Below are positions 2,100-48,081 of a DNA stretch of 64,000 nucleotides, piece by piece. Source of the DNA: a virus (Duplodnaviria; Caudoviricetes); IMG/VR virus record IMGVR_UViG_3300037400_002699, positions 1 through 64,000 of that record. The stretch is one strand, 5' to 3'. Position 1 is the first letter of the stretch, and each line of letters begins with the position of its first letter. The translations under genes and the position numbers were made by a program. The notes under the pieces were generated by a model that saw nothing but the letters and a program-made list of their open reading frames with translations, made no database searches and had not been told where the DNA came from.

Positions 2100-2318
2100 A
2101 TGGAGTATAAGAGTGAAACAGGCTATGTAGCCACCGATACATTGAGCGGTATTGACATATATGATGCTGATGGTAATTTCGTCGTGGAGTTGCAGGGATT
2201 ATCCCTATCACGCTTCGAAGATGAAGATGGAAACATCAATGACAACCAGTTGGAAGAAGAAATCCGTAACACATTGGATGCACAGGAGTTTCTGGATTAC
2301 CAAGCAGAGTATTGTTAA
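2100..2318 (+). CDS. Small acidic hypothetical protein
   Basis: 72 aa, D/E-rich, follows previous gene. Confidence 0.65.
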   Translation: MEYKSETGYVATDTLSGIDIYDADGNFVVELQGLSLSRFEDEDGNINDNQLEEEIRNTLDAQEFLDYQAEYC

Positions 2319-2398
2319 AGATGTCAAAAATATGACGTGAAATTTTGATTTCTCAAAAAAAACTTATATCTTTGCACTACTAAAACAAGGTACGAGTT

Positions 2399-2521
2399 AT
2401 GAGTAAAAAGAAATTTCTACGCTCCATTGCCAACATTCGAGTCGTGGCGATGCCAAGCAAAGTAAGAGAAAACGAGGACGGTACTAAGACACAGCTCTAC
2501 AAAATCCGTCCAATGCGTTAG
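2399..2521 (+). CDS. Small basic peptide (40 aa, MSKKKFLRS...)
   Basis: ATG 2399 to TAG 2519-2521, directly after promoter TATCTTTG at 2367-2374. Confidence 0.45.
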   Translation: MSKKKFLRSIANIRVVAMPSKVRENEDGTKTQLYKIRPMR

Positions 2522-2524
2522 GTC

Positions 2525-3294
2525 GCCGCACGGGTTGGCAGCAGCCCCCAGACCAAGTAGTATTAACATTAAAAGTATGCAGCGATGAATAGTAATGAAC
2601 GACCCCCGCCCTAATGGGTGAATATAGTTAGACAGTTCGGAATATTATATAATCGAGTATGAATTTTAAAATGTAAAGGGGTGCATGGAAAAATCCCCAC
2701 ATCATAGAGTATGATTAGAGACCGACCCAACTAAGGAATGATACTTAGATGATAGACGATTTTAATAAAATGAAAAAACCCCAACAAGGTGGAGATAGGG
2801 TAAAGTTCGTGTAACGTTATAATGCCGCCGCATAAGTAAACTTTAATGCCAGGGCAAAGTGAGTTTGGAACACATGAGATAGTTCCGTCCGAGCCGATTA
2901 AGTGTCAATGAGCGACCAATATCCAGAGAGCCGCCATTTCCGAGGCACATTGCGCCCCCAGCCGCTACAAAAGAGAGCCGCATTTGGACGCATCCGTATG
3001 GCTATTAAACCACTGCCAAGGGCGATTAGGGCATACCGAAGTTGAGACAAGACCGCATAAGGAGTAACGTGCGCACAATTCTACTACCAAGCAATGCGGA
3101 TGTTAGTTATAGGATGCCCATTTTTCAACAGAGAGGGGCGATATTAGGCGAGCGAACCAATTTAGCCGAGTATATGCGCTTGCCATGCCCCATTAGAGAG
3201 TGAGGTGGGAGTGACCCACACAGATGTCGAACTGCGCTGCTTAACGCACTCGCCTTTGCCATCAAGGTGTGGTGTCCCACCCCGCTCATTTTTT
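2525..3294 (+). ncRNA. Candidate large structured non-coding RNA (GOLLD/ROOL-like class or new)
   Basis: ~770 nt without ORF, many long-range complementary segments including crossing (pseudoknot) helices, ends in closing stem 3198-3210/3275-3287 plus T-tract, immediately before a tRNA. Confidence 0.55.
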
Positions 3295-3297
3295 CAT

Positions 3298-3370
3298 GTG
3301 TCTATAGCTCAGTTGGTAGAGCGCCACATTTGATATGTGGGGGTCGGGGGTTCGAGTCCCTCTGGGCGCA
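3298..3370 (+). tRNA. Atypical tRNA, anticodon TGA (Ser-type) on a short-variable-loop body
   Basis: Cloverleaf: GTGTCTA/TGGGCGC acceptor, GCTC/GAGC D-stem, CCACA/TGTGG anticodon stem with loop TTTGATA, GGGGG-TTCGAGT-CCCTC T-arm; no encoded CCA. Confidence 0.75.
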
Positions 3371-3425
3371 CCCTCGTTGCGTTGTGATAACGCTGTTTGT
3401 TTTCCATAATGATTGTTAGGTTGAG

Positions 3426-3465
3426 GGGAGCACTCCAGATAAGGGGTGCTCCCATTGTTTTTTCT
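3426..3465 (+). terminator. Intrinsic terminator
   Basis: GGGAGCACTCC-agataa-GGGGTGCTCCC then T-rich tail. Confidence 0.7.
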
Positions 3466-3547
3466 TAATTTTCTCTAAAATATTTGGTAGTTTCGATTTT
3501 TTTGCCTAATTTTGCAGTGTCAAACAATTAAAGCAATAAGATTTATT

Positions 3548-19409: not shown

Positions 19410-20936
19410 ATGGCAAAAATGAATTTTTCTCAGTATCAGTTGAACATCTTCAACGAAGTTGAAAACGGTAACACAAACCTTGCTATCAATGCAGTTGCTG
19501 GTAGTGGTAAGACCACCACAATTGTGGAATGCTGCAAGCGACTCCACTTGGGCAAATTTGACGTGAAGTTTTTGGCGTTCAATAACTCTATCGTTAAGGA
19601 GTTATCCTACAAAATTGGCTCTTATGCCGACGTTTCAACCCTGCATTCTTTTGGCTACTCAGTACTGAAAAAGATTGCTGGCAAAGACCGTAAATTCAAC
19701 ATTAACGATAGAAAGTATATCAATATCATTAAGACTGATAATATGCTTTCCCTTAATCGTGATGATAAGGACTACATTAAGGCTTTAAACAATGCTGATA
19801 AGTTGTTCCGTTTGTGCCGTATTAACCTTATCCAGCAGGGTGATATTGAATCTATTAAAGCCATTTGTGAGGAACACTCTATCACTCCGCTGGCTAATGA
19901 AGTTAGTGTAGTTAATATCCTGCTGGCTGATGCCTATGAACTTAACCTTAATGGCAAGTTGGAAATTGATTTTACTGATATGCTGGTGCTCCCGCTTTCC
20001 TATCCCCAGCAGATTCCCAGCTATAAGGTGGTTTTCATTGATGAATGCCAAGACCTATCAGCCGCACAACGTGAACTGATGCTTGCAGCCGCAAAGGGGG
20101 GCAGATTTGTAGCCGTTGGCGATAGACGACAAGCTATCAATGGTTTTGCTGGTGCTGATTGTCAGTCATTCAATAAGATTGCTACACTCCCCAACACAAA
20201 GGAATTGCCCTTGTCCGTGAACTATCGGTGTGGCTATAACATCATTGAACTTGCCCAAGAGATAGTGCCTGAAATCCAAGCTCATCAGGGTGCTATCGCT
20301 GGCGAAGTTTCCAGCACTAACAATGTCACTTTAGACACGTTTAAGGCTAATGATATGGTGCTTTGCCGTACCGCTGCTCCCTTAGTTGTTATGTGCCTTA
20401 AACTTATCCGTGCTGGTGTAACGGCAGTTGTTAAGGGTCGTGACATTGCCAATGGTCTTATAACTATGATTGATAAGAGTAAGGCAAAGACCGTGAAGGG
20501 CTTTGAAACTTGGGCTGATAACGAGAAAAACAAGCTGGCTAAAGAGATTGCAAAGAAAGAGCAAATGACCCCAGAGGAAGCAAAGGAAACTGGTAGATAT
20601 ATTGCCTATTGTGACCGTATCGACTGCATTCTTTGTATTGGCGAAAATAACTCTAACTTGGATGCAGTTAAAAACACTATTGAGCAACTTTTCAATGATG
20701 CCAACATTGCCAATGCCGTGACGCTTAGTACTTGCCACAAATCAAAAGGTTTGGAATCAAATAGAGTTGTTATCCTGCTGCCTAATAAACTCCCGCTTAC
20801 TTGGAAAGGGCAAAAGGATTGGGAGTTAGAGCAGGAAATGAACTTGCGCTATGTGGCAATAACACGAGCCAAGAAAGAATTGGTATTTGTCAATATGGAG
20901 CAAAAAGACCTTTTTGCAGTGGAATTTAAAAAGTAA
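19410..20936 (+). CDS. UvrD/Rep-family SF1 helicase
   Basis: AVAGSGKT, DECQD, VGD..QAI.GFAGAD, LSVNYRC, TCHKSKGLE, YVAITRAK motifs. Confidence 0.93.
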   Translation: MAKMNFSQYQLNIFNEVENGNTNLAINAVAGSGKTTTIVECCKRLHLGKFDVKFLAFNNSIVKELSYKIGSYADVSTLHSFGYSVLKKIAGKDRKFNINDRKYINIIKTDNMLSLNRDDKDYIKALNNADKLFRLCRINLIQQGDIESIKAICEEHSITPLANEVSVVNILLADAYELNLNGKLEIDFTDMLVLPLSYPQQIPSYKVVFIDECQDLSAAQRELMLAAAKGGRFVAVGDRRQAINGFAGADCQSFNKIATLPNTKELPLSVNYRCGYNIIELAQEIVPEIQAHQGAIAGEVSSTNNVTLDTFKANDMVLCRTAAPLVVMCLKLIRAGVTAVVKGRDIANGLITMIDKSKAKTVKGFETWADNEKNKLAKEIAKKEQMTPEEAKETGRYIAYCDRIDCILCIGENNSNLDAVKNTIEQLFNDANIANAVTLSTCHKSKGLESNRVVILLPNKLPLTWKGQKDWELEQEMNLRYVAITRAKKELVFVNMEQKDLFAVEFKK

Positions 20937-35454: not shown

Positions 35455-35790
35455 TTATTCCTCCTCTTCTTCTTTATCCTCTTCCTCACCCCTGTCTTGT
35501 AAGGCAGTGTTGATAAGGTCTATCAAGTCCTTGAGTGGTATATTACCCATGACCTTATAGATAGGGTCGTCGTTCTCATCAAACAGGATTGTGGTTGGTA
35601 TTGACCTAATGCCAAGCTTCTCGAATGTAGGTGACATATCCTTGCGTTTTTCGATATTGATTACCTCAAATTCCAAATCCTTATATTCCTCCATTTCGCT
35701 GACTTTCCTAAACGTAGGTGCATAGTTTCTACATGGTATACACCAGTCAGCTGAGTATTTTACTACTTTTTTTACTTTATTAGTGTTCAT
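35455..35790 (-). CDS. Thioredoxin-like protein
   Basis: ADWCIPC active site, IRSIPT. Confidence 0.88.
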   Translation of the reverse strand: MNTNKVKKVVKYSADWCIPCRNYAPTFRKVSEMEEYKDLEFEVINIEKRKDMSPTFEKLGIRSIPTTILFDENDDPIYKVMGNIPLKDLIDLINTALQDRGEEEDKEEEEE

Positions 35791-37580
35791 CTTCTTCTAA
35801 TTTTTACGTTTTTCTTATTTCTAAATATATCATTGAATGAATTAATTCCTCTCGAAGAATTCATACTGATTGTGGAGCTTGTAGGTATTCTCTTCTCTAC
35901 TGGCTTTGCATTGGCAATTATAGCCCTTGCTGAATTCTCATTAATGATTGTGGTGGTTGACTTTCCAAGAATCCTGTTGACCTGGTACTCAATCCTTGCA
36001 AGTTTTGACGTACTATTAGCGTTAGTTGCATCAAAATCCTGGAAGTCTTTCTCGTCGATGAATCCAAGTGTATCTTTAGCCCTGGTGTATGCGACATACA
36101 TGAGGTTTTGCTCCTGCCTTATCTCCCAGTCCTTCTGTGCCGCCTTGCTAGGCATGAGTGAAGGACAGACAATGTAGACGTTATTTGCCTCCAAACCTTT
36201 AGCCTTGTGAATGGTTGACAATGCTATTCCAGTTCCCTTCTTGTCGCCCTTCGGGAATATCTCATCAATTCTCTTGATAAGTTCATCCGTTTGGTTGATT
36301 CCCTCTGATAATATCTCAAGAGCCTTTATCATATCCATCTTATTTTCGATTATAGGGCTTTTTAAGGCTGTCTGAGCGTCGATTCCAGAGCGTACCATGA
36401 TGTTATTCCTCGTGGTAAATAAATCGTCGTAGAGCCTTGCAAATAAGCCATCAGACCTACAGTCAGCATTGATTACATCTTGCTTGGTACTCATCACGAG
36501 CTTCTTTAGGTTGCTCCCTATGTCCTTGCCCCTAATGAAGGCTTTCTTACCAATCTTCAGAAACTCGTTATAGACCTGGATAAGTGGTGCATTGTTTCTG
36601 CACAGTATCATATCACCATCCTCTACCATATCCAGTGGTACATTATATAATACCTTACCTTCTCTACCTCCAGCTTCATTCCATTCTATAGAAGGTACAA
36701 TCTGCTTTGCGTAGTCAACAATGTTCCTTCCACAGCGATATGAAATACTGAGTGGTAGGCATGTGGTATTAGGTATTGATAGTATCTTATTGAATGACTC
36801 TGGGTCGGCCCCCGCAAAACTATAGAGGCACTGGTTTCTGTCGCCAATGGAGATAAGCCTCGTGCCCATCTTGAAACACTTCAACACAAGCTCTCTCTCG
36901 GCTTTGTTCATATCCTGGCATTCATCTACCATAATGAAGTCGTAAAGCAGTCCCAGTGGCTTCAAATTAAGCACATGAGGCAACCATACCATGTCTGTAT
37001 AATCTATATCTTCCAGATGGTTCTTTCCCCACTCCATAACCTTCAATGCTACAGACTTTTCGTCAGCAAACGTCTCGATACCATATCTGGTTTCTATGAA
37101 CTCCAGGTCTTTCTCAGTCTGACAGAGATAAAATCTTCCGAAATCAACATACTTCTTGATATTATCCATATACTTGAAGTAGTCCTTTGGTGATAACCTA
37201 CGGAGGTTTATAGTGGTATAATCGCGTATGAAGTTCCTTATGTGGGACTCATATTTGAATGGTTCTGGAACAATAGATATCGTCGGGAGGTTTCTCTTAA
37301 TCATAGTAAAGCCAAGACCGTGAAGTGTCTTTACCTCCACGTTTTCAAACTTCTTTGTCTTCTTGGTTAGTTCCTCCACAATGTCCCTGTTGAACGCTGC
37401 CATCAGTATCTTTTTGTCCTCTGGTATCAGTTCAAGACATTTGATAAGCGTTGTTGTTTTTCCAGCACCAGCAGCAGCCTCTACTACTATATGACCACTA
37501 CCGTGAAGTATCTGGTCGAATATGGCCGTCTGGTATTTACTAGGTACAAAATTATCAACTTCTTTCTTCTTTCTTGACAT
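35787..37580 (-). CDS. UvrD/Rep-family SF1 helicase (second paralog)
   Basis: AAAGAGKT, DECQD, IGD.NQ..Y.FAGAD, LSISYRC, TIHKAKGLE, YVAYTRAK. Confidence 0.93.
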   Translation of the reverse strand: MSRKKKEVDNFVPSKYQTAIFDQILHGSGHIVVEAAAGAGKTTTLIKCLELIPEDKKILMAAFNRDIVEELTKKTKKFENVEVKTLHGLGFTMIKRNLPTISIVPEPFKYESHIRNFIRDYTTINLRRLSPKDYFKYMDNIKKYVDFGRFYLCQTEKDLEFIETRYGIETFADEKSVALKVMEWGKNHLEDIDYTDMVWLPHVLNLKPLGLLYDFIMVDECQDMNKAERELVLKCFKMGTRLISIGDRNQCLYSFAGADPESFNKILSIPNTTCLPLSISYRCGRNIVDYAKQIVPSIEWNEAGGREGKVLYNVPLDMVEDGDMILCRNNAPLIQVYNEFLKIGKKAFIRGKDIGSNLKKLVMSTKQDVINADCRSDGLFARLYDDLFTTRNNIMVRSGIDAQTALKSPIIENKMDMIKALEILSEGINQTDELIKRIDEIFPKGDKKGTGIALSTIHKAKGLEANNVYIVCPSLMPSKAAQKDWEIRQEQNLMYVAYTRAKDTLGFIDEKDFQDFDATNANSTSKLARIEYQVNRILGKSTTTIINENSARAIIANAKPVEKRIPTSSTISMNSSRGINSFNDIFRNKKNVKIRRR

Positions 37581-38621: not shown

Positions 38622-39839
38622 TTAAGATAAATGATATGCTTTCTTCCTTATGTCGATAAGAAGGTCATTCACGAATGACTCGTCAATCTTCTTAGGAAGG
38701 TTTGACTTCTCAATTGCTTCATCAAGGTTTGCCTTATCCTTGTTTACAATCTCCATAAGCTCATCATACTCGAACTGATGATTTCTAACAGCCATAAGGA
38801 AGTCTCTGTCACCAGCAACACGTCTGTCAAGAATAAGTCCGTCACCGTTTGCAATCTCCTTACCCATACGGATAAGTCTGATGCAGTGCATCATGTTCTT
38901 TGAGTCATAGTTCTTGTCGAGGTTTGACTCATAACGCTTCTGGTTACGGTTCTGCTCCCAGTCCTTGTACTCCTTATACTTCTTGCAGTGGTCTTTGAAA
39001 CCACTCTCGTTGTATATCATGTGAACAAGAGGCTTCTCACCCTTTGTAACAGAAGAGCAACGCATATCAGTAGCCTCGTCAAGGCACATACCACGATAAT
39101 GCTTTACCTCCTTATTCTGCTCGAACCACTCCATAAGGGCGTAATCCTTAGACATAAGGTCGTAGAACTCAAGAGCGAACTCAAACGCCTTTCCACCAAG
39201 GTGCATAAAATCACCTGCTCTCTTGAAGTTATTTGCCTCGAAGTGAGCACCCCAGTCATAGTATACACCGTAGGTATCGTGCATATTAGGGATATGTACC
39301 AGACCACAGAAGTCCTTGTTAAGGCCACGGTTCTCCAGCCAGTTCTTAATCTTAGTACTACCCTGTGCATGGAAAGTATATGCAAAGTCGAATGGAGTCA
39401 GACGCTCGTGCATAGGATTCACAATCTTCTTGTTTAGCCCACGAGCCTTACCAATCTGCTGCACAGCATAACCTACAAACGGTGCAAAACACTGCTTGGT
39501 AATGAACTTATTCTTGTTTGCAAACAACTCAGCAAGAATAGGAGAAGGCTTGGTGATAACCTTATCCTCTGGAACAAAGAGTGACTCGATAATGCTGGGG
39601 TTGGACTTCATAAGCATGTGCATGTACTTACGAAGCTCATACCAGGTATTATCGTTCTTTGCATCAGCAACAAGCTCCTGGTAGCCAAGACCGATACCAA
39701 GCAGGGTATCGTGCGGGGCAATGAAGAGTCCGCTGCTGTCAACGTCACTATCTTCTGTCGCTAATCCATAGAGGTGAGAACCCCTAACGTACTCGTAAAG
39801 GAGTCTACCATCTTCTCTGATTTTATCGAAATTAGTCAT
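38622..39839 (-). CDS. RlaP/YcgL-like pol-beta nucleotidyltransferase
   Basis: RGSHLYGL..EDSDVD motif, KSNP..IESLF, YD.KNMMH..RL. Confidence 0.85.
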   Translation of the reverse strand: MTNFDKIREDGRLLYEYVRGSHLYGLATEDSDVDSSGLFIAPHDTLLGIGLGYQELVADAKNDNTWYELRKYMHMLMKSNPSIIESLFVPEDKVITKPSPILAELFANKNKFITKQCFAPFVGYAVQQIGKARGLNKKIVNPMHERLTPFDFAYTFHAQGSTKIKNWLENRGLNKDFCGLVHIPNMHDTYGVYYDWGAHFEANNFKRAGDFMHLGGKAFEFALEFYDLMSKDYALMEWFEQNKEVKHYRGMCLDEATDMRCSSVTKGEKPLVHMIYNESGFKDHCKKYKEYKDWEQNRNQKRYESNLDKNYDSKNMMHCIRLIRMGKEIANGDGLILDRRVAGDRDFLMAVRNHQFEYDELMEIVNKDKANLDEAIEKSNLPKKIDESFVNDLLIDIRKKAYHLS

Positions 39840-45472: not shown

Positions 45473-47956
45473 TTATTTAATTTCAATCTGCTCATTTGAG
45501 CATGACGCGCTGAATACGTAGTTTGACGGATATTCGTTCGTCAACATGAGGTCTGTAATTTTATCCTCTAAGTTGGTCTGTATAAGCCTTATGATAGGTC
45601 TAGCACCGAACTCCTTGGATTTGAGGGCTTCTGCATGTATACAGGTAACAACATCATCAGTATACGTAATACTATACTCTAACGTATTAAGCCTCTTATT
45701 AAACTTATCTATTTCTAATTTAACAATATCTCTAAGATTATCATCTGATAATGAATTGAAATATACTATCTGGTCCAATCTATTAATAAACTCTGGAGTA
45801 AATTTTTTCTTTAATTCCTTATCAATAATAGATTTCTTATTAGATTCCTCACTGTTAACGAAACCAAGACCATTACCAAGCTCTGCTGCCTTCCTAGCAC
45901 CTATATTCGAGGTCATGAGGACGATAACATTCTTGAAGTTGACAATCTGTCCAGCACTGTCCGTAAGTCGTCCCTCGTCGAATAACTGAAGGAATATGTT
46001 ATAAACCTCCTGGTCTGCCTTTTCAATCTCATCAAGGAGTAATACACAGTGCTGCTTGTGCTTCACAGCCTCAGTAAGCTGCCCACCGTTCTCGTAACCT
46101 ACATATCCTGGTGCTGCTCCAGTAAGCTTTGCTACAGAGTTTTTCTCTGAGTATTCAGACATATCAATCCTTATGAGTGCCTTCTCGTCTCCGAAGATTT
46201 CCTCAGCCAGCTTCTTGGCAATGAGAGTCTTACCAGAACCAGTAGGGCCTACCATTAAGATATTAGCTAGTGTTTTCGACTTGTCACCAAGTCCTACCTT
46301 GTTTCTCTTGATAACCCTGCAAACGCTGTCAACTGCCTCGTCCTGCCCTATGATACTCTCCTTGAGAATCTTGTCGATGTTGGCAATCTTAGCCTTCTCA
46401 CTGACTGACAGCTTGCTCACTGGAATCTTGGTCATTTCAGACACAACGTCTGCAATGTTGTCCTCAGTGATTTCTATTGTATCTATCTTAAGCTTCTTAA
46501 TGTCTCTCTTATAGTCTGCCATGTCTGAAGCCAGTACGTTCTCTTCTATCGTGAGTGAGTCAATGAGTTCAAAGTCTCCGTTATTAAGTGCTGTGTATTT
46601 CTCATTCTCAATTTCTCTCATTCTCTTTTTCGTATTCTGTATTTCTACTGGTTCTCTCTCCAGGAGTGATGTACCAGCACCAGCAAGGTCTATGATATCG
46701 AATGCTGAGTCTGGAAGACACCTGTCAGTAATGTATCTGTCAGCAAGTTCAATTGCTTTCTTAATGGTTTTATCACTGTATGTAACCCTGTGGAATTCTT
46801 CATAATATCTCTTGTTGTGGTCAAGGATTGCAGTCGCCTCCTCTATCGTGTTAGGCTCAATGACAATCTTCTGTAACTTTCTTGAAATAGATGAATTACT
46901 TTCTATTGAGTTCCTGTATTCCTTAAATGTAGTAGTACCGATAATCTTCAGTTTACCTTCTGATAAGGCGTTACTAATCATACCAGATATGTCAGTGTCC
47001 TTATCCTTGCTTCCACTCTTCAATACATTCTGCATGTCGTCGATGAACAGGATATACTTGTCGGATGCTTGTAATTCAGTGAACAATCCATTGATTCTCT
47101 CCTCGAACATTCCTCTAAAGTGTGTTCCACTTACCAATGCCATGATGTTGAGCATTACAATCTCCTTACCTTCAAGCACTGATGGAACTTTACCTTCTTC
47201 AATGAGGTTTGCAAGCCCATAGACGATAGCTGTCTTTCCGCAGCCTCCACGTCCTACCAGAACTGCATTGTTCTTCTTTCTTCTGGAAAGGGTCTTAATG
47301 ATTTCCTTTATCTCATTTTCTCTCCCAATCACGTCGTCAATCTCACCGTTCTTAGCCATCTTGTTGAGGCTTGTGGTGTATTTCGTGATGAAGTCGTCAG
47401 CCAGACTTGACACTGATTTGGCATTGACCTGGCTCTTGAGAGGTATACCATTTCCCTTTGCCTTGAGACCCTTCGGAGCTTTCAACTCACCCTTCTCTTT
47501 ATTAGGAGTATCGCACTTGTTCTGTATGAACTCGTACTCAAGTCTGAACTTGTCGAACACTTCTGCGTTCTTGAATCCGTACTCCTTATTGAGAACAGCA
47601 AGCAGGATGTGTTCTGTTCCTATTTCTATATTCTTTAATTTATCTCTTTCCTTTTGGGCACACTCAAGCAATCTCACCAGCTCATCATTAAATCTGATGT
47701 CGTCCATTTTCACTTGAGGGTTCATATGCGATTCAATAGCAGACACATACACCTTCCTCAGCTCATCCAGGTTGTTTGACATAAGACAGTTGTCAAGGAT
47801 AAGGTTCGCATGACAGTTTCTAATGTCCAGCATTGATAAAATAAGGTACTCTGGTGTAAGTAAGTCCGTAGGGAATTCATGAATGAGGGTATCAGTCATA
47901 TATGACATTACCTCATTAAGTTCTAATGTGTAAGAATTATCTTTTTTTCTACTCAT
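45473..47956 (-). CDS. clpC: ClpC-like Hsp100 AAA+ ATPase
   Basis: Clp-N repeats (TPEYLIL, GTEHILL), VIGRENEI..LSRRKKNN, GCGKT, LPD.A.D..D.AG, UVR-like M domain, GPTGSGKT, DMSEY, PGYVGY, DEIEKA, LGF loop, FGARP. Confidence 0.9.
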   Translation of the reverse strand: MSRKKDNSYTLELNEVMSYMTDTLIHEFPTDLLTPEYLILSMLDIRNCHANLILDNCLMSNNLDELRKVYVSAIESHMNPQVKMDDIRFNDELVRLLECAQKERDKLKNIEIGTEHILLAVLNKEYGFKNAEVFDKFRLEYEFIQNKCDTPNKEKGELKAPKGLKAKGNGIPLKSQVNAKSVSSLADDFITKYTTSLNKMAKNGEIDDVIGRENEIKEIIKTLSRRKKNNAVLVGRGGCGKTAIVYGLANLIEEGKVPSVLEGKEIVMLNIMALVSGTHFRGMFEERINGLFTELQASDKYILFIDDMQNVLKSGSKDKDTDISGMISNALSEGKLKIIGTTTFKEYRNSIESNSSISRKLQKIVIEPNTIEEATAILDHNKRYYEEFHRVTYSDKTIKKAIELADRYITDRCLPDSAFDIIDLAGAGTSLLEREPVEIQNTKKRMREIENEKYTALNNGDFELIDSLTIEENVLASDMADYKRDIKKLKIDTIEITEDNIADVVSEMTKIPVSKLSVSEKAKIANIDKILKESIIGQDEAVDSVCRVIKRNKVGLGDKSKTLANILMVGPTGSGKTLIAKKLAEEIFGDEKALIRIDMSEYSEKNSVAKLTGAAPGYVGYENGGQLTEAVKHKQHCVLLLDEIEKADQEVYNIFLQLFDEGRLTDSAGQIVNFKNVIVLMTSNIGARKAAELGNGLGFVNSEESNKKSIIDKELKKKFTPEFINRLDQIVYFNSLSDDNLRDIVKLEIDKFNKRLNTLEYSITYTDDVVTCIHAEALKSKEFGARPIIRLIQTNLEDKITDLMLTNEYPSNYVFSASCSNEQIEIK

Positions 47957-48081
47957 AATTTTTTTTTGTTTTACATAATAAAATGTAATCATTGACGTTT
48001 AAAAAACAATAAAAAAAGTTTGTAATTTTCTTGCTTTTTTAACATTTTTTATATATCTTTGCAAAAAATAGTTAAGAGACT

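Follow-up and report, generated by a model that had tools for sequence, protein, structure and literature searches.

Introduction

GOLLD and ROOL are large ornate RNAs described mainly from Firmicutes-type hosts and metagenomes, and we know of no function for either. Both are phage or prophage RNAs often found near tRNA islands, and both form multimers by means of kissing loops, of which some are palindromic; symmetric kissing loops are seen in the assemblies of OLE, GOLLD and ROOL alike. ROOL was first found in rumen samples, and GOLLD consists of a conserved core and a poorly conserved part (bioRxiv 10.1101/2024.12.08.627333). Here we describe a large structured RNA locus in the IMG/VR virus record IMGVR_UViG_3300037400_002699. 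The stretch analysed (the window) comprises the first 64 kb (64,000 nucleotides, nt) of this 134-kb record (CheckV completeness ~45%), and an original prediction made from its letters alone had marked positions 2525-3294 as an ornate non-coding RNA co-transcribed with a tRNA, belonging either to GOLLD or ROOL or to a new class.

The feature is real and is in no described RNA family. We consider it fairly probable that positions 2585-3373 are one copy of a cassette of a new class, in which a modular structured phage RNA stands behind arrest-type mini-open reading frames (mini-ORFs) and is followed by a tRNA mimic, and in which the RNA would be gated by translation, processed at its 3′ end and active in trans. 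Comparisons among related phages show a conserved, base-paired RNA core on the plus strand, arrest-type mini-ORFs that look translated, exchange of the unit as a cassette and a tRNA mimic at its 3′ end. The carriers of the cassette family are uncultured jumbo phages of Bacteroidota from the rumen and pig gut.

Absence from known RNA families

Searches with Rfam 15 at the gathering score, at E≤10 with lax filters over 2300-3500, and at E≤1 in eight relatives returned tRNA only. Neither RF01998 (GOLLD) nor RF03087 (ROOL) was matched at any of these settings, and the proposed membership of these families is not supported. Likewise, tmRNA, RNase P RNA and group I/II introns gave no Rfam match, and ARAGORN called no tmRNA. 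The proposal of a new large RNA class is supported for the 3′ two-thirds of the region, whose core covaries strongly in 32 distinct sequences; the 5′ third has the appearance of a translated leader. Extensive structure supported by covariation, of the kind known from GOLLD and ROOL, is found in domain 3 and, modestly, in the domain-2 hairpin, while the other modules are stable and invariant.

A covarying core in five stem types

The stretch as a whole folds no better than shuffled sequence, so the evidence for structure must be comparative. Family alignments reveal a mosaic of modules around one constant piece, which we call domain 3 (coordinates of this and all other features are in Table 1). 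Its 32 distinct sequences come from rumen and pig-gut phage contigs and fall into five stem types that differ greatly in stem sequence but agree in geometry. For the apical stem, the window has GGAGUA/UACUACC, and the other types have UGUGAUA/UAUCAGCA, CCCCUCA/UGAGGGG, GGAGCA/UGCUGCC or GGGGUA/UACCCC; the 3′ side of the internal loop is GGUUAUAGG in the window copy and GGUUUAGAG elsewhere.

A covariance model trained on 12 sequences of a single stem type finds full-length matches in the other types with cmsearch (37 matches, 27 distinct, and later 50 matches, 32 distinct). On the alignment to this model, which is fitted to the structure and favours it, 93.7% of cells are paired compared to 67.6% in shuffles, 18 of the 23 pairs have changes on both sides (138 cells), and the covariation score is 0.603 against 0.187 (0/500 shuffles). 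When the partner is slid by 1-3 columns as a control, 36-55% of cells are paired. Run on a MAFFT alignment made without fitting to the structure, RNAalifold recovers the apical stem, in which 5/6 pairs are compensatory, and the minimum free energy fold of the window's own sequence has the same three stems (z -2.90 on the plus strand vs -1.43 on the minus strand). With a single column-wise structure, the MAFFT alignment A5 does not hold the outer helix, whose register differs between types; the covariance model was therefore used instead. G-U pairing is common (UG:11 and GU:6 at single pairs), which together with the better folding of the plus strand points to an RNA read from that strand.

Domain 3 occurs once in the window's genome and persists even where the flanking small proteins share only 36-40% identity with those of the window. 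Two of its GUGCGCAC loops are predicted to form an 8-bp duplex of about -16.7 kcal/mol. A candidate long-range pairing joins AAGUU (3039) to AAACUU (2839 in the window; in other types, at the 5′ beginning of the core); both elements are invariant, and L200 is without the partner. A variant at L223:2200-3000, and in its relatives L224-L228, retains the internal-loop motif AAGUU ... GUUAGUUUAAAG, with GCCAC/GUGGC closing it, and is without the palindromic apical hairpin, so that the two parts of domain 3 are separable.

Counting complete cassettes only, 77 distinct versions were collected: at least 48 with the domain-3 core (494-1070 nt), 10 of a second type and 19 others. The full arrangement of the window (A-type) is rare, and the core domain is widespread and covarying. 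More distant phages were recruited via neighbouring proteins and conserved motifs, and L133 and L134 are one and the same 412-kb contig. A corrected core pattern run on 185,579 prokaryote genomes gave one chance match (L220, in a GC-rich coding region) and neither a prophage copy nor a host assignment; blastn against GenBank phages matched the tRNA part only, and the domain-3 model has no match in Bacteroides phage DAC22. Matches to an over-long core pattern in metagenomes (L156 and L157) were chance hits in coding DNA. A search of viral contigs with the pattern GAGAGCCGC..GAGAGCCGC, built on a repeat which had been predicted and is indeed present at 2926 and 2973, gave mostly chance matches and one relative only (L055).

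Arrest-type mini-ORFs in the leader

The 5′ third of the region is evidently a translated leader with two arrest-type mini-ORFs, to judge by the substitution patterns of the family. In mini-ORF1 the residues RPPP are invariant in 30/30 nucleotide versions, although the Arg codon is CGA in 12, AGA in 14, CGT in 2 and CGC in 2, and all four codons are used for the first Pro. An ATG stands in frame in every version with 2, 5 or 6 residues ahead of RPPP, and a stop codon (any of the three kinds) follows 0-4 codons past PPP in 29/30; with one version excepted, the peptide has 6-13 residues. Mini-ORF2 has an in-frame ATG and a stop 0-1 codon past RDRP in 11/11 versions, and its N-terminal lengths vary by whole codons. 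Both mini-ORFs thus have the marks of peptide-level selection, with synonymous changes, including CGA/AGA, and a frame that is kept despite changes in length. A match to the mini-ORF2 pattern in L140 was due to chance.

The stop codon of each mini-ORF sits in the loop of a small hairpin. For mini-ORF1, this hairpin is formed in most members by the last Pro codons and a downstream G-run, as CCC..GGG, GCC..GGC, or GCCUU..AAGGC where the codon is CCU, and in B-type members a weak hairpin with U5 lies immediately 3′ of the stop. Peptides that end in Pro, Pro-Pro or Arg-Pro beside a stop codon are classic contexts for slow termination or arrest. TnaC, as outlined in PMC8450073, arrests at its own stop codon, and coupling of the ribosome at polyproline is described in PMC5021804 as preventing both terminator hairpins and Rho loading; RAPP motifs are the subject of a related paper on arrest peptides (PMC10951233).

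A tRNA-like element exchanged together with the RNA

Both ARAGORN and Rfam call the predicted tRNA at 3297-3373, and its cloverleaf scores well above the RF00005 gathering score of 29 (60 bits). The anticodon loop is UUUGAUA with U37, which departs from the canonical 7-nt loop (U33, purine 37), and the anticodon is not conserved in the family. Syntenic elements elsewhere have triplets for Leu, Lys or Arg in the anticodon arm, or else a tetraloop or a 50-nt insertion; in others the arm is unrecognisable. Most members retain the acceptor, D and T arms; L133 is an exception, with a non-tRNA fold closed by a long-range helix. These arms are the parts needed by RNase P, RNase Z and the CCA-adding enzyme; the parts used in processing are thus generally kept, while the decoding part is free to vary. 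We infer from this pattern that the tRNA-like element is a 3′-end processing signal for the upstream RNA. Compared to the element of the closest relative (L115:1589-1662, from G001, a 154-kb contig with a 93%-identical copy of the cassette), the window has a 2-nt insertion (TA) in the anticodon loop, which turns the ARAGORN call from Gln(UUG) to Ser(UGA); as a tRNA, the element in the window may be disabled or altered.

The order common to the family is the gene for a small basic protein, a mini-ORF, a non-coding RNA of highly variable length, a hairpin with a U-run, the tRNA-like element and a conserved 3′ element with terminators. The tRNA-like element begins 0-3 nt past the hairpin and U-run, with no promoter between them. 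A motif scan finds a single Bacteroidota-type promoter (TTTG, 19 nt, TAnnTTTG) across 2344-3507, at 2344-2374, and co-transcription of the RNA and the tRNA-like element from this promoter at 2367, as originally proposed, fits the sequence.

Comparison with close relatives reveals the limits of the exchanged unit. The flanks of L166 and L158 are ~89-93% identical to those of the window; homology ends at ~2629 (L166) or 2615 (L158), just past the mini-ORF1 region, and resumes at 3340 (L166) or 3342 (L158), inside the T arm of the tRNA-like element. Between these breakpoints, phages of the L166/L158 type have a different, shorter RNA and another variant of the tRNA-like element, so that the two are swapped as a pair. 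Phages with a swapped cassette include contigs that encode the same 40-amino-acid protein as G001.

Proposed mechanism and alternative explanations

Under the reading given above, ribosomes would pause at the Pro-stop ends of the mini-ORFs, and pausing would melt the stop-codon hairpins and shield the 5′ end of the RNA. This would license or stabilise the synthesis of the long untranslated RNA, in the style of TnaC or of polyproline/EF-P-dependent coupling. RNase P would then cut at the 5′ end of the tRNA mimic, leaving an RNA that ends in a protective hairpin and U-tract, and the released RNA of 0.5-1 kb would act in trans. By analogy with the symmetric kissing loops of OLE, GOLLD and ROOL, the released RNA would probably self-associate via its palindromic loop. 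The most specific form of the model, a new large phage RNA that forms a dimer or a higher-order particle through this loop (cf. the OLE dimer and the GOLLD/ROOL cages), is licensed by arrest, is cut by RNase P at the tRNA mimic and is exchanged as a unit, is doubtful when taken as a whole.

Several observations weigh against the cassette model. The whole 770 nt fold no better than shuffles (z -1.15 on the plus strand; 0.12 on the minus strand), neither domain 2 nor the 5′-most 40% of the reported stretch has a thermodynamic signal (z near 0), and the main covariation count carries the bias of its model-fitted alignment. The palindrome never covaries and could equally serve a dimeric protein on RNA or DNA; in its sole altered copy (L143:735-829, minus strand), CUGCGCAU replaces GUGCGCAC, and the two outer positions, both changed, are not complementary. 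Near-identical phages are without this RNA, which is, on such genome comparisons, dispensable or replaceable. The element of the closest relative resembles a normal tRNA-Gln, and a true tRNA role in this clade may apply. Finally, the hairpin and U-tract that precede the tRNA-like element could act as a genuine terminator, in which case the parts would not belong to one precursor: 3198-3294 forms a hairpin of -41.9 kcal/mol followed by U6, and with no promoter between it and the tRNA-like element, full termination would silence the latter. A consensus terminator scanner makes no call here, presumably since the apical part exceeds its loop limit of 3-8 nt.

Some of these points suit a leader that acts in cis only, with the mini-ORFs and hairpins forming a ribosome-dependent attenuator of the tRNA or tRNA-like gene and the long RNA being a spacer or hitch-hiker without function in trans. 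Every cassette type, even the short ones of 142-300 nt, has the mini-ORF, the hairpin with its U-run and the tRNA-like element, B-type members have the weak hairpin and U5 directly 3′ of the mini-ORF1 stop, and near-identical phages manage without the long RNA. We nevertheless regard this explanation as unlikely: compensatory changes preserve a 95-nt domain across five stem types and its loop is nearly invariant, neither of which would be expected of a spacer, and the supposed target of attenuation is least constrained in the anticodon arm, where decoding matters. It is quite improbable that the locus is a selfish or mobile element at the RNA level (intron-like, ribozyme-bearing or a homing cassette) that sits beside a tRNA gene and owes its structure to its own mobility. 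No ribozyme family in Rfam, whether group I, group II or another, is matched, no ORF for an endonuclease, reverse transcriptase or transposase lies in or beside the cassette, and reading of the junctions revealed neither target-site duplications nor terminal repeats; moreover, the cassette is always at the same locus and is single-copy in the window's genome. What such an element would explain is the presence, absence and swapping of types between phages 89-93% identical in their flanks, with sharp boundaries at ~2629 and ~3340, and the mosaic architecture, in which modules are shuffled between types and one is relocated in L148.

A divergent member of GOLLD or ROOL would share the general resemblance (phage-borne, 0.5-1 kb, adjacent to a tRNA, with a core and variable parts, and from the rumen as ROOL is) and nothing closer; given the Rfam result and hosts that are Bacteroidota rather than Firmicutes-type, we consider this highly improbable. 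We find it equally hard to credit that the region is a decayed protein-coding gene or functionless sequence. The weak z-score of the whole region and the dispensability of the segment in close relatives agree with decay or lack of function, but no reading frame opens under table 11, table 4 or TAG=Q, substitutions track base pairing rather than codons, and the core persists between phages whose flanking small proteins have diverged widely.

Other modules, coding content and genomic setting

No ORF longer than 54 amino acids overlaps 2525-3294 under table 11, and neither TAG=Q nor table 4 opens a long frame there; the stretch is ORF-free as predicted, except for the two conserved mini-ORFs inside it. 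It was also said to be GC-richer than other spacers, which is true of 2801-3300 (G+C 0.48-0.55 vs 0.30-0.45 in neighbouring spacers) but not of 2600-2800, which is AT-rich (0.375-0.395). The 3′ modules beat shuffles (3027-3123, z -2.90; 3130-3194, z -3.22; 3195-3296, z -3.73), and 2760-2894 and 2895-3026 have z near 0 and no thermodynamic signal.

The domain-2 hairpin is also present in the commonest type. On an unfitted MAFFT alignment, two pairs of its inner stem are changed on both sides (G-C to A-U; C-G to U-A), and C-G, U-G and U-A are found at one pair of the outer stem when read by eye; this stem is not countable on alignment A8, in which MAFFT misplaced a 2-nt gap. Hairpin module U is common to type-A relatives and L150 and is invariant in sequence. 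Module T, a long terminal hairpin, has homologues in types A and C and in L150 and hardly varies; at positions where the window has U-G and A-C, L133 has Watson-Crick pairs (read by eye).

All seven complementary pairs listed in the original prediction are present in the sequence. GGGCAT/ATGCCC is the outer stem of domain 3, which has G-C to A-U in L133 and covaries across types, and the stem 3198/3275 is consistent with relatives; these two are supported. GGCGAGCG/CGCTTGCC and TAAAGTT/AACTTTA are present and essentially invariant, and hence uninformative either way. The proposed pseudoknot GTTGAGA/TTTCAAC survives in the closest type (L133) by wobble pairs only, and the other four types lack it. 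The remaining two fail: GTCCGA/TTGGAC is broken in both relatives compared, and GCATCCGTAT/ATGCGGATGT is not kept in L133 and competes with CCGCAT 3053/ATGCGG 3094, which covariation supports.

Table 1. Positions of features in and around the RNA cassette, in window coordinates
Feature	Position	Strand	Basis
Bacteroidota-type promoter (-33 TTTG; -7 TAnnTTTG)	2344-2347; 2367-2374	+	motif scan; kept in G001
Gene for basic 40-amino-acid protein, first cistron	2399-2521	+	mean column identity 82%, six homologues
Mini-ORF1, MNSNERPPP-stop	2585-2614	+	30 distinct nucleotide versions
Small hairpin CGCCC/GGGUG, mini-ORF1 stop codon in loop	2607-2620	+	equivalent in most family members
Swappable cassette: structured RNA and 5′ two-thirds of tRNA-like element	2630-3339	+	homology breakpoints vs L166, L158
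Mini-ORF2, MIRDRPN-stop	2711-2734	+	11 distinct versions
Domain-2 hairpin, GUGUC 2902-2906/GGCAC 2944-2948 enclosing AUGAGCG 2908-2914/CGCCAU 2932-2937	2899-2950	+	covariation
Domain 3, core of all five stem types	3027-3120	+	covariance model R1; RNAalifold; minimum free energy fold
Domain 3 outer stem (P_out)	3029-3034/3114-3119, plus CC/GG	+	
Domain 3 internal loop AAGUU, 5′ side	3039-3043	+	invariant
Domain 3 middle stem (P_mid)	3053-3058/3094-3099	+	
Domain 3 apical stem (P_in), one bulge	3061-3066/3082-3088	+	
Domain 3 terminal loop, 15 nt, ACGUGCGCACAAUUC, capping the three-tier hairpin	3067-3081	+	
Palindrome GUGCGCAC in the 15-nt terminal loop	3069-3076	+	kept in 31/32 distinct sequences while the adjacent stem covaries
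Hairpin module U, GGGGCG/UGCCCC enclosing GGCGAGCG/CGCUUGCC	3135-3191	+	z -3.22, 0/200 shuffles as stable
Long terminal hairpin, module T	3198-3210/3275-3287, then U6 3289-3294	+	z -3.73
tRNA-like element (ARAGORN: Ser-UGA, U at position 37)	3297-3373	+	Rfam tRNA 60 bits
3′ element: small hairpin and U-run 3379-3393, UUUUCCAUAAU..UUGUUAGGUU, strong terminator hairpin 3426-3453	3379-3463	+	

Across the phage family, no other sequence of the locus is as well conserved as the 3′ element (3379-3465; GCGUUGUGAUAACGC, U-run, UUUUCCAUAAU..UUGUUAGGUU, strong terminator). At the other end, the small basic protein is always encoded directly 5′ of the RNA cassette (window 2399-2521; L180:2501-2671) and is a candidate RNA partner. 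Its family has a 40-41-amino-acid form (30 protein clusters) and a 57-59-amino-acid form with a central insertion (286 clusters); neither form matches a Pfam or PHROG family, and no GenBank phage encodes the protein. The clade with the 57-59-amino-acid form has its own promoter immediately 5′ of the mini-ORF. Between the small-protein gene and this promoter, the same clade has an additional conserved non-coding module of ~230 nt (GGGUAGG ... GGGGAAACCUACC; L180:2675-2930, and also L133, L136 and L139), which in L148 is relocated 3′ of domain 3.

Most early genes of the window are preceded by Bacteroidota-type promoters (TTTG, ~19 nt, TAnnTTTG). The best cultured matches of a helicase are in Bacteroides, Chryseobacterium and Flavobacterium phages (≤38% identity), the nearest being Bacteroides phages DAC/SJC at 38%, and the relatives come from rumen, ruminant-gut and pig-gut assemblies, with contigs of up to ~430 kb. 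The window also encodes an RlaP-type ‘RNA repair pathway’ nucleotidyltransferase, a ClpB-like double AAA+ ATPase and two UvrD-type helicases (coordinates given jointly for these four genes: 38622-39839, minus strand; 45473-47992, minus; 19410-20936, plus; 35787-37580, minus). The RNA-repair gene may bear on tRNA-targeting host defences.

Significance and comparison with known systems

If the model is right, the locus is a translation-gated, self-processing cassette that phages swap as a unit. With a third class, unrelated to the first two and carried by abundant Bacteroidota jumbo phages, large ornate RNAs would emerge as a general phage strategy. The neighbouring small-protein family alone has >300 protein clusters. 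RPPP-stop and RDRP-stop mini-ORFs with stops in hairpin loops are a new, sharply defined leader motif for Bacteroidota, in which, to our knowledge, leader-peptide regulation is little known. The two arrest-type mini-ORFs, the 3′ tRNA mimic and the single mutable palindromic loop offer experimental handles, and near-identical phages with another cassette are natural ‘knock-outs’.

The leader resembles TnaC, polyproline/EF-P stalls and RAPP peptides in having a very short ORF at the 5′ end of the transcript, with a conserved Arg-Pro(-Pro-Pro) 0-4 codons before the stop, and in leaving the part of the transcript downstream of the mini-ORFs untranslated. TnaC has 24 residues, however, and the mini-ORFs are far shorter. 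Downstream of the putative stall sites lies a structured RNA rather than an enzyme gene. Like the mascRNA of MALAT1, a tRNA-like signal for 3′-end processing of which the known cases are eukaryotic, the tRNA mimic has a cloverleaf whose acceptor, D and T arms are intact, and it immediately follows a long non-coding RNA with a stable structure at its end; unlike mascRNA, it is a predicted rather than an established substrate of cleavage by RNase P, and the element of the closest relative may be a working tRNA-Gln. The terminal loop of domain 3 has a parallel in the dimerisation initiation site of HIV-1, a kissing hairpin that likewise has a palindrome flanked by purines in its loop; the phage version, known from sequence alone, is an 8-nt palindrome in a 15-nt loop.

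The closest parallels are ROOL (RF03087) and GOLLD (RF01998), which are also phage-encoded, roughly 0.5-1 kb long, multi-domain and adjacent to tRNAs. A conserved core with variable parts is shared with GOLLD and a rumen origin with ROOL. The conserved terminal loops of ROOL and GOLLD make symmetric kissing contacts between chains in solved structures, and the conserved palindromic loop suggests that the new RNA may multimerise as well. The cassette differs from both in having no detectable similarity to them in sequence or structure and in being hosted by Bacteroidota jumbo phages; it also differs in its arrest-type mini-ORFs at the 5′ end, in the fused tRNA mimic with a freely varying anticodon arm, and in the exchange of the whole unit as a cassette.

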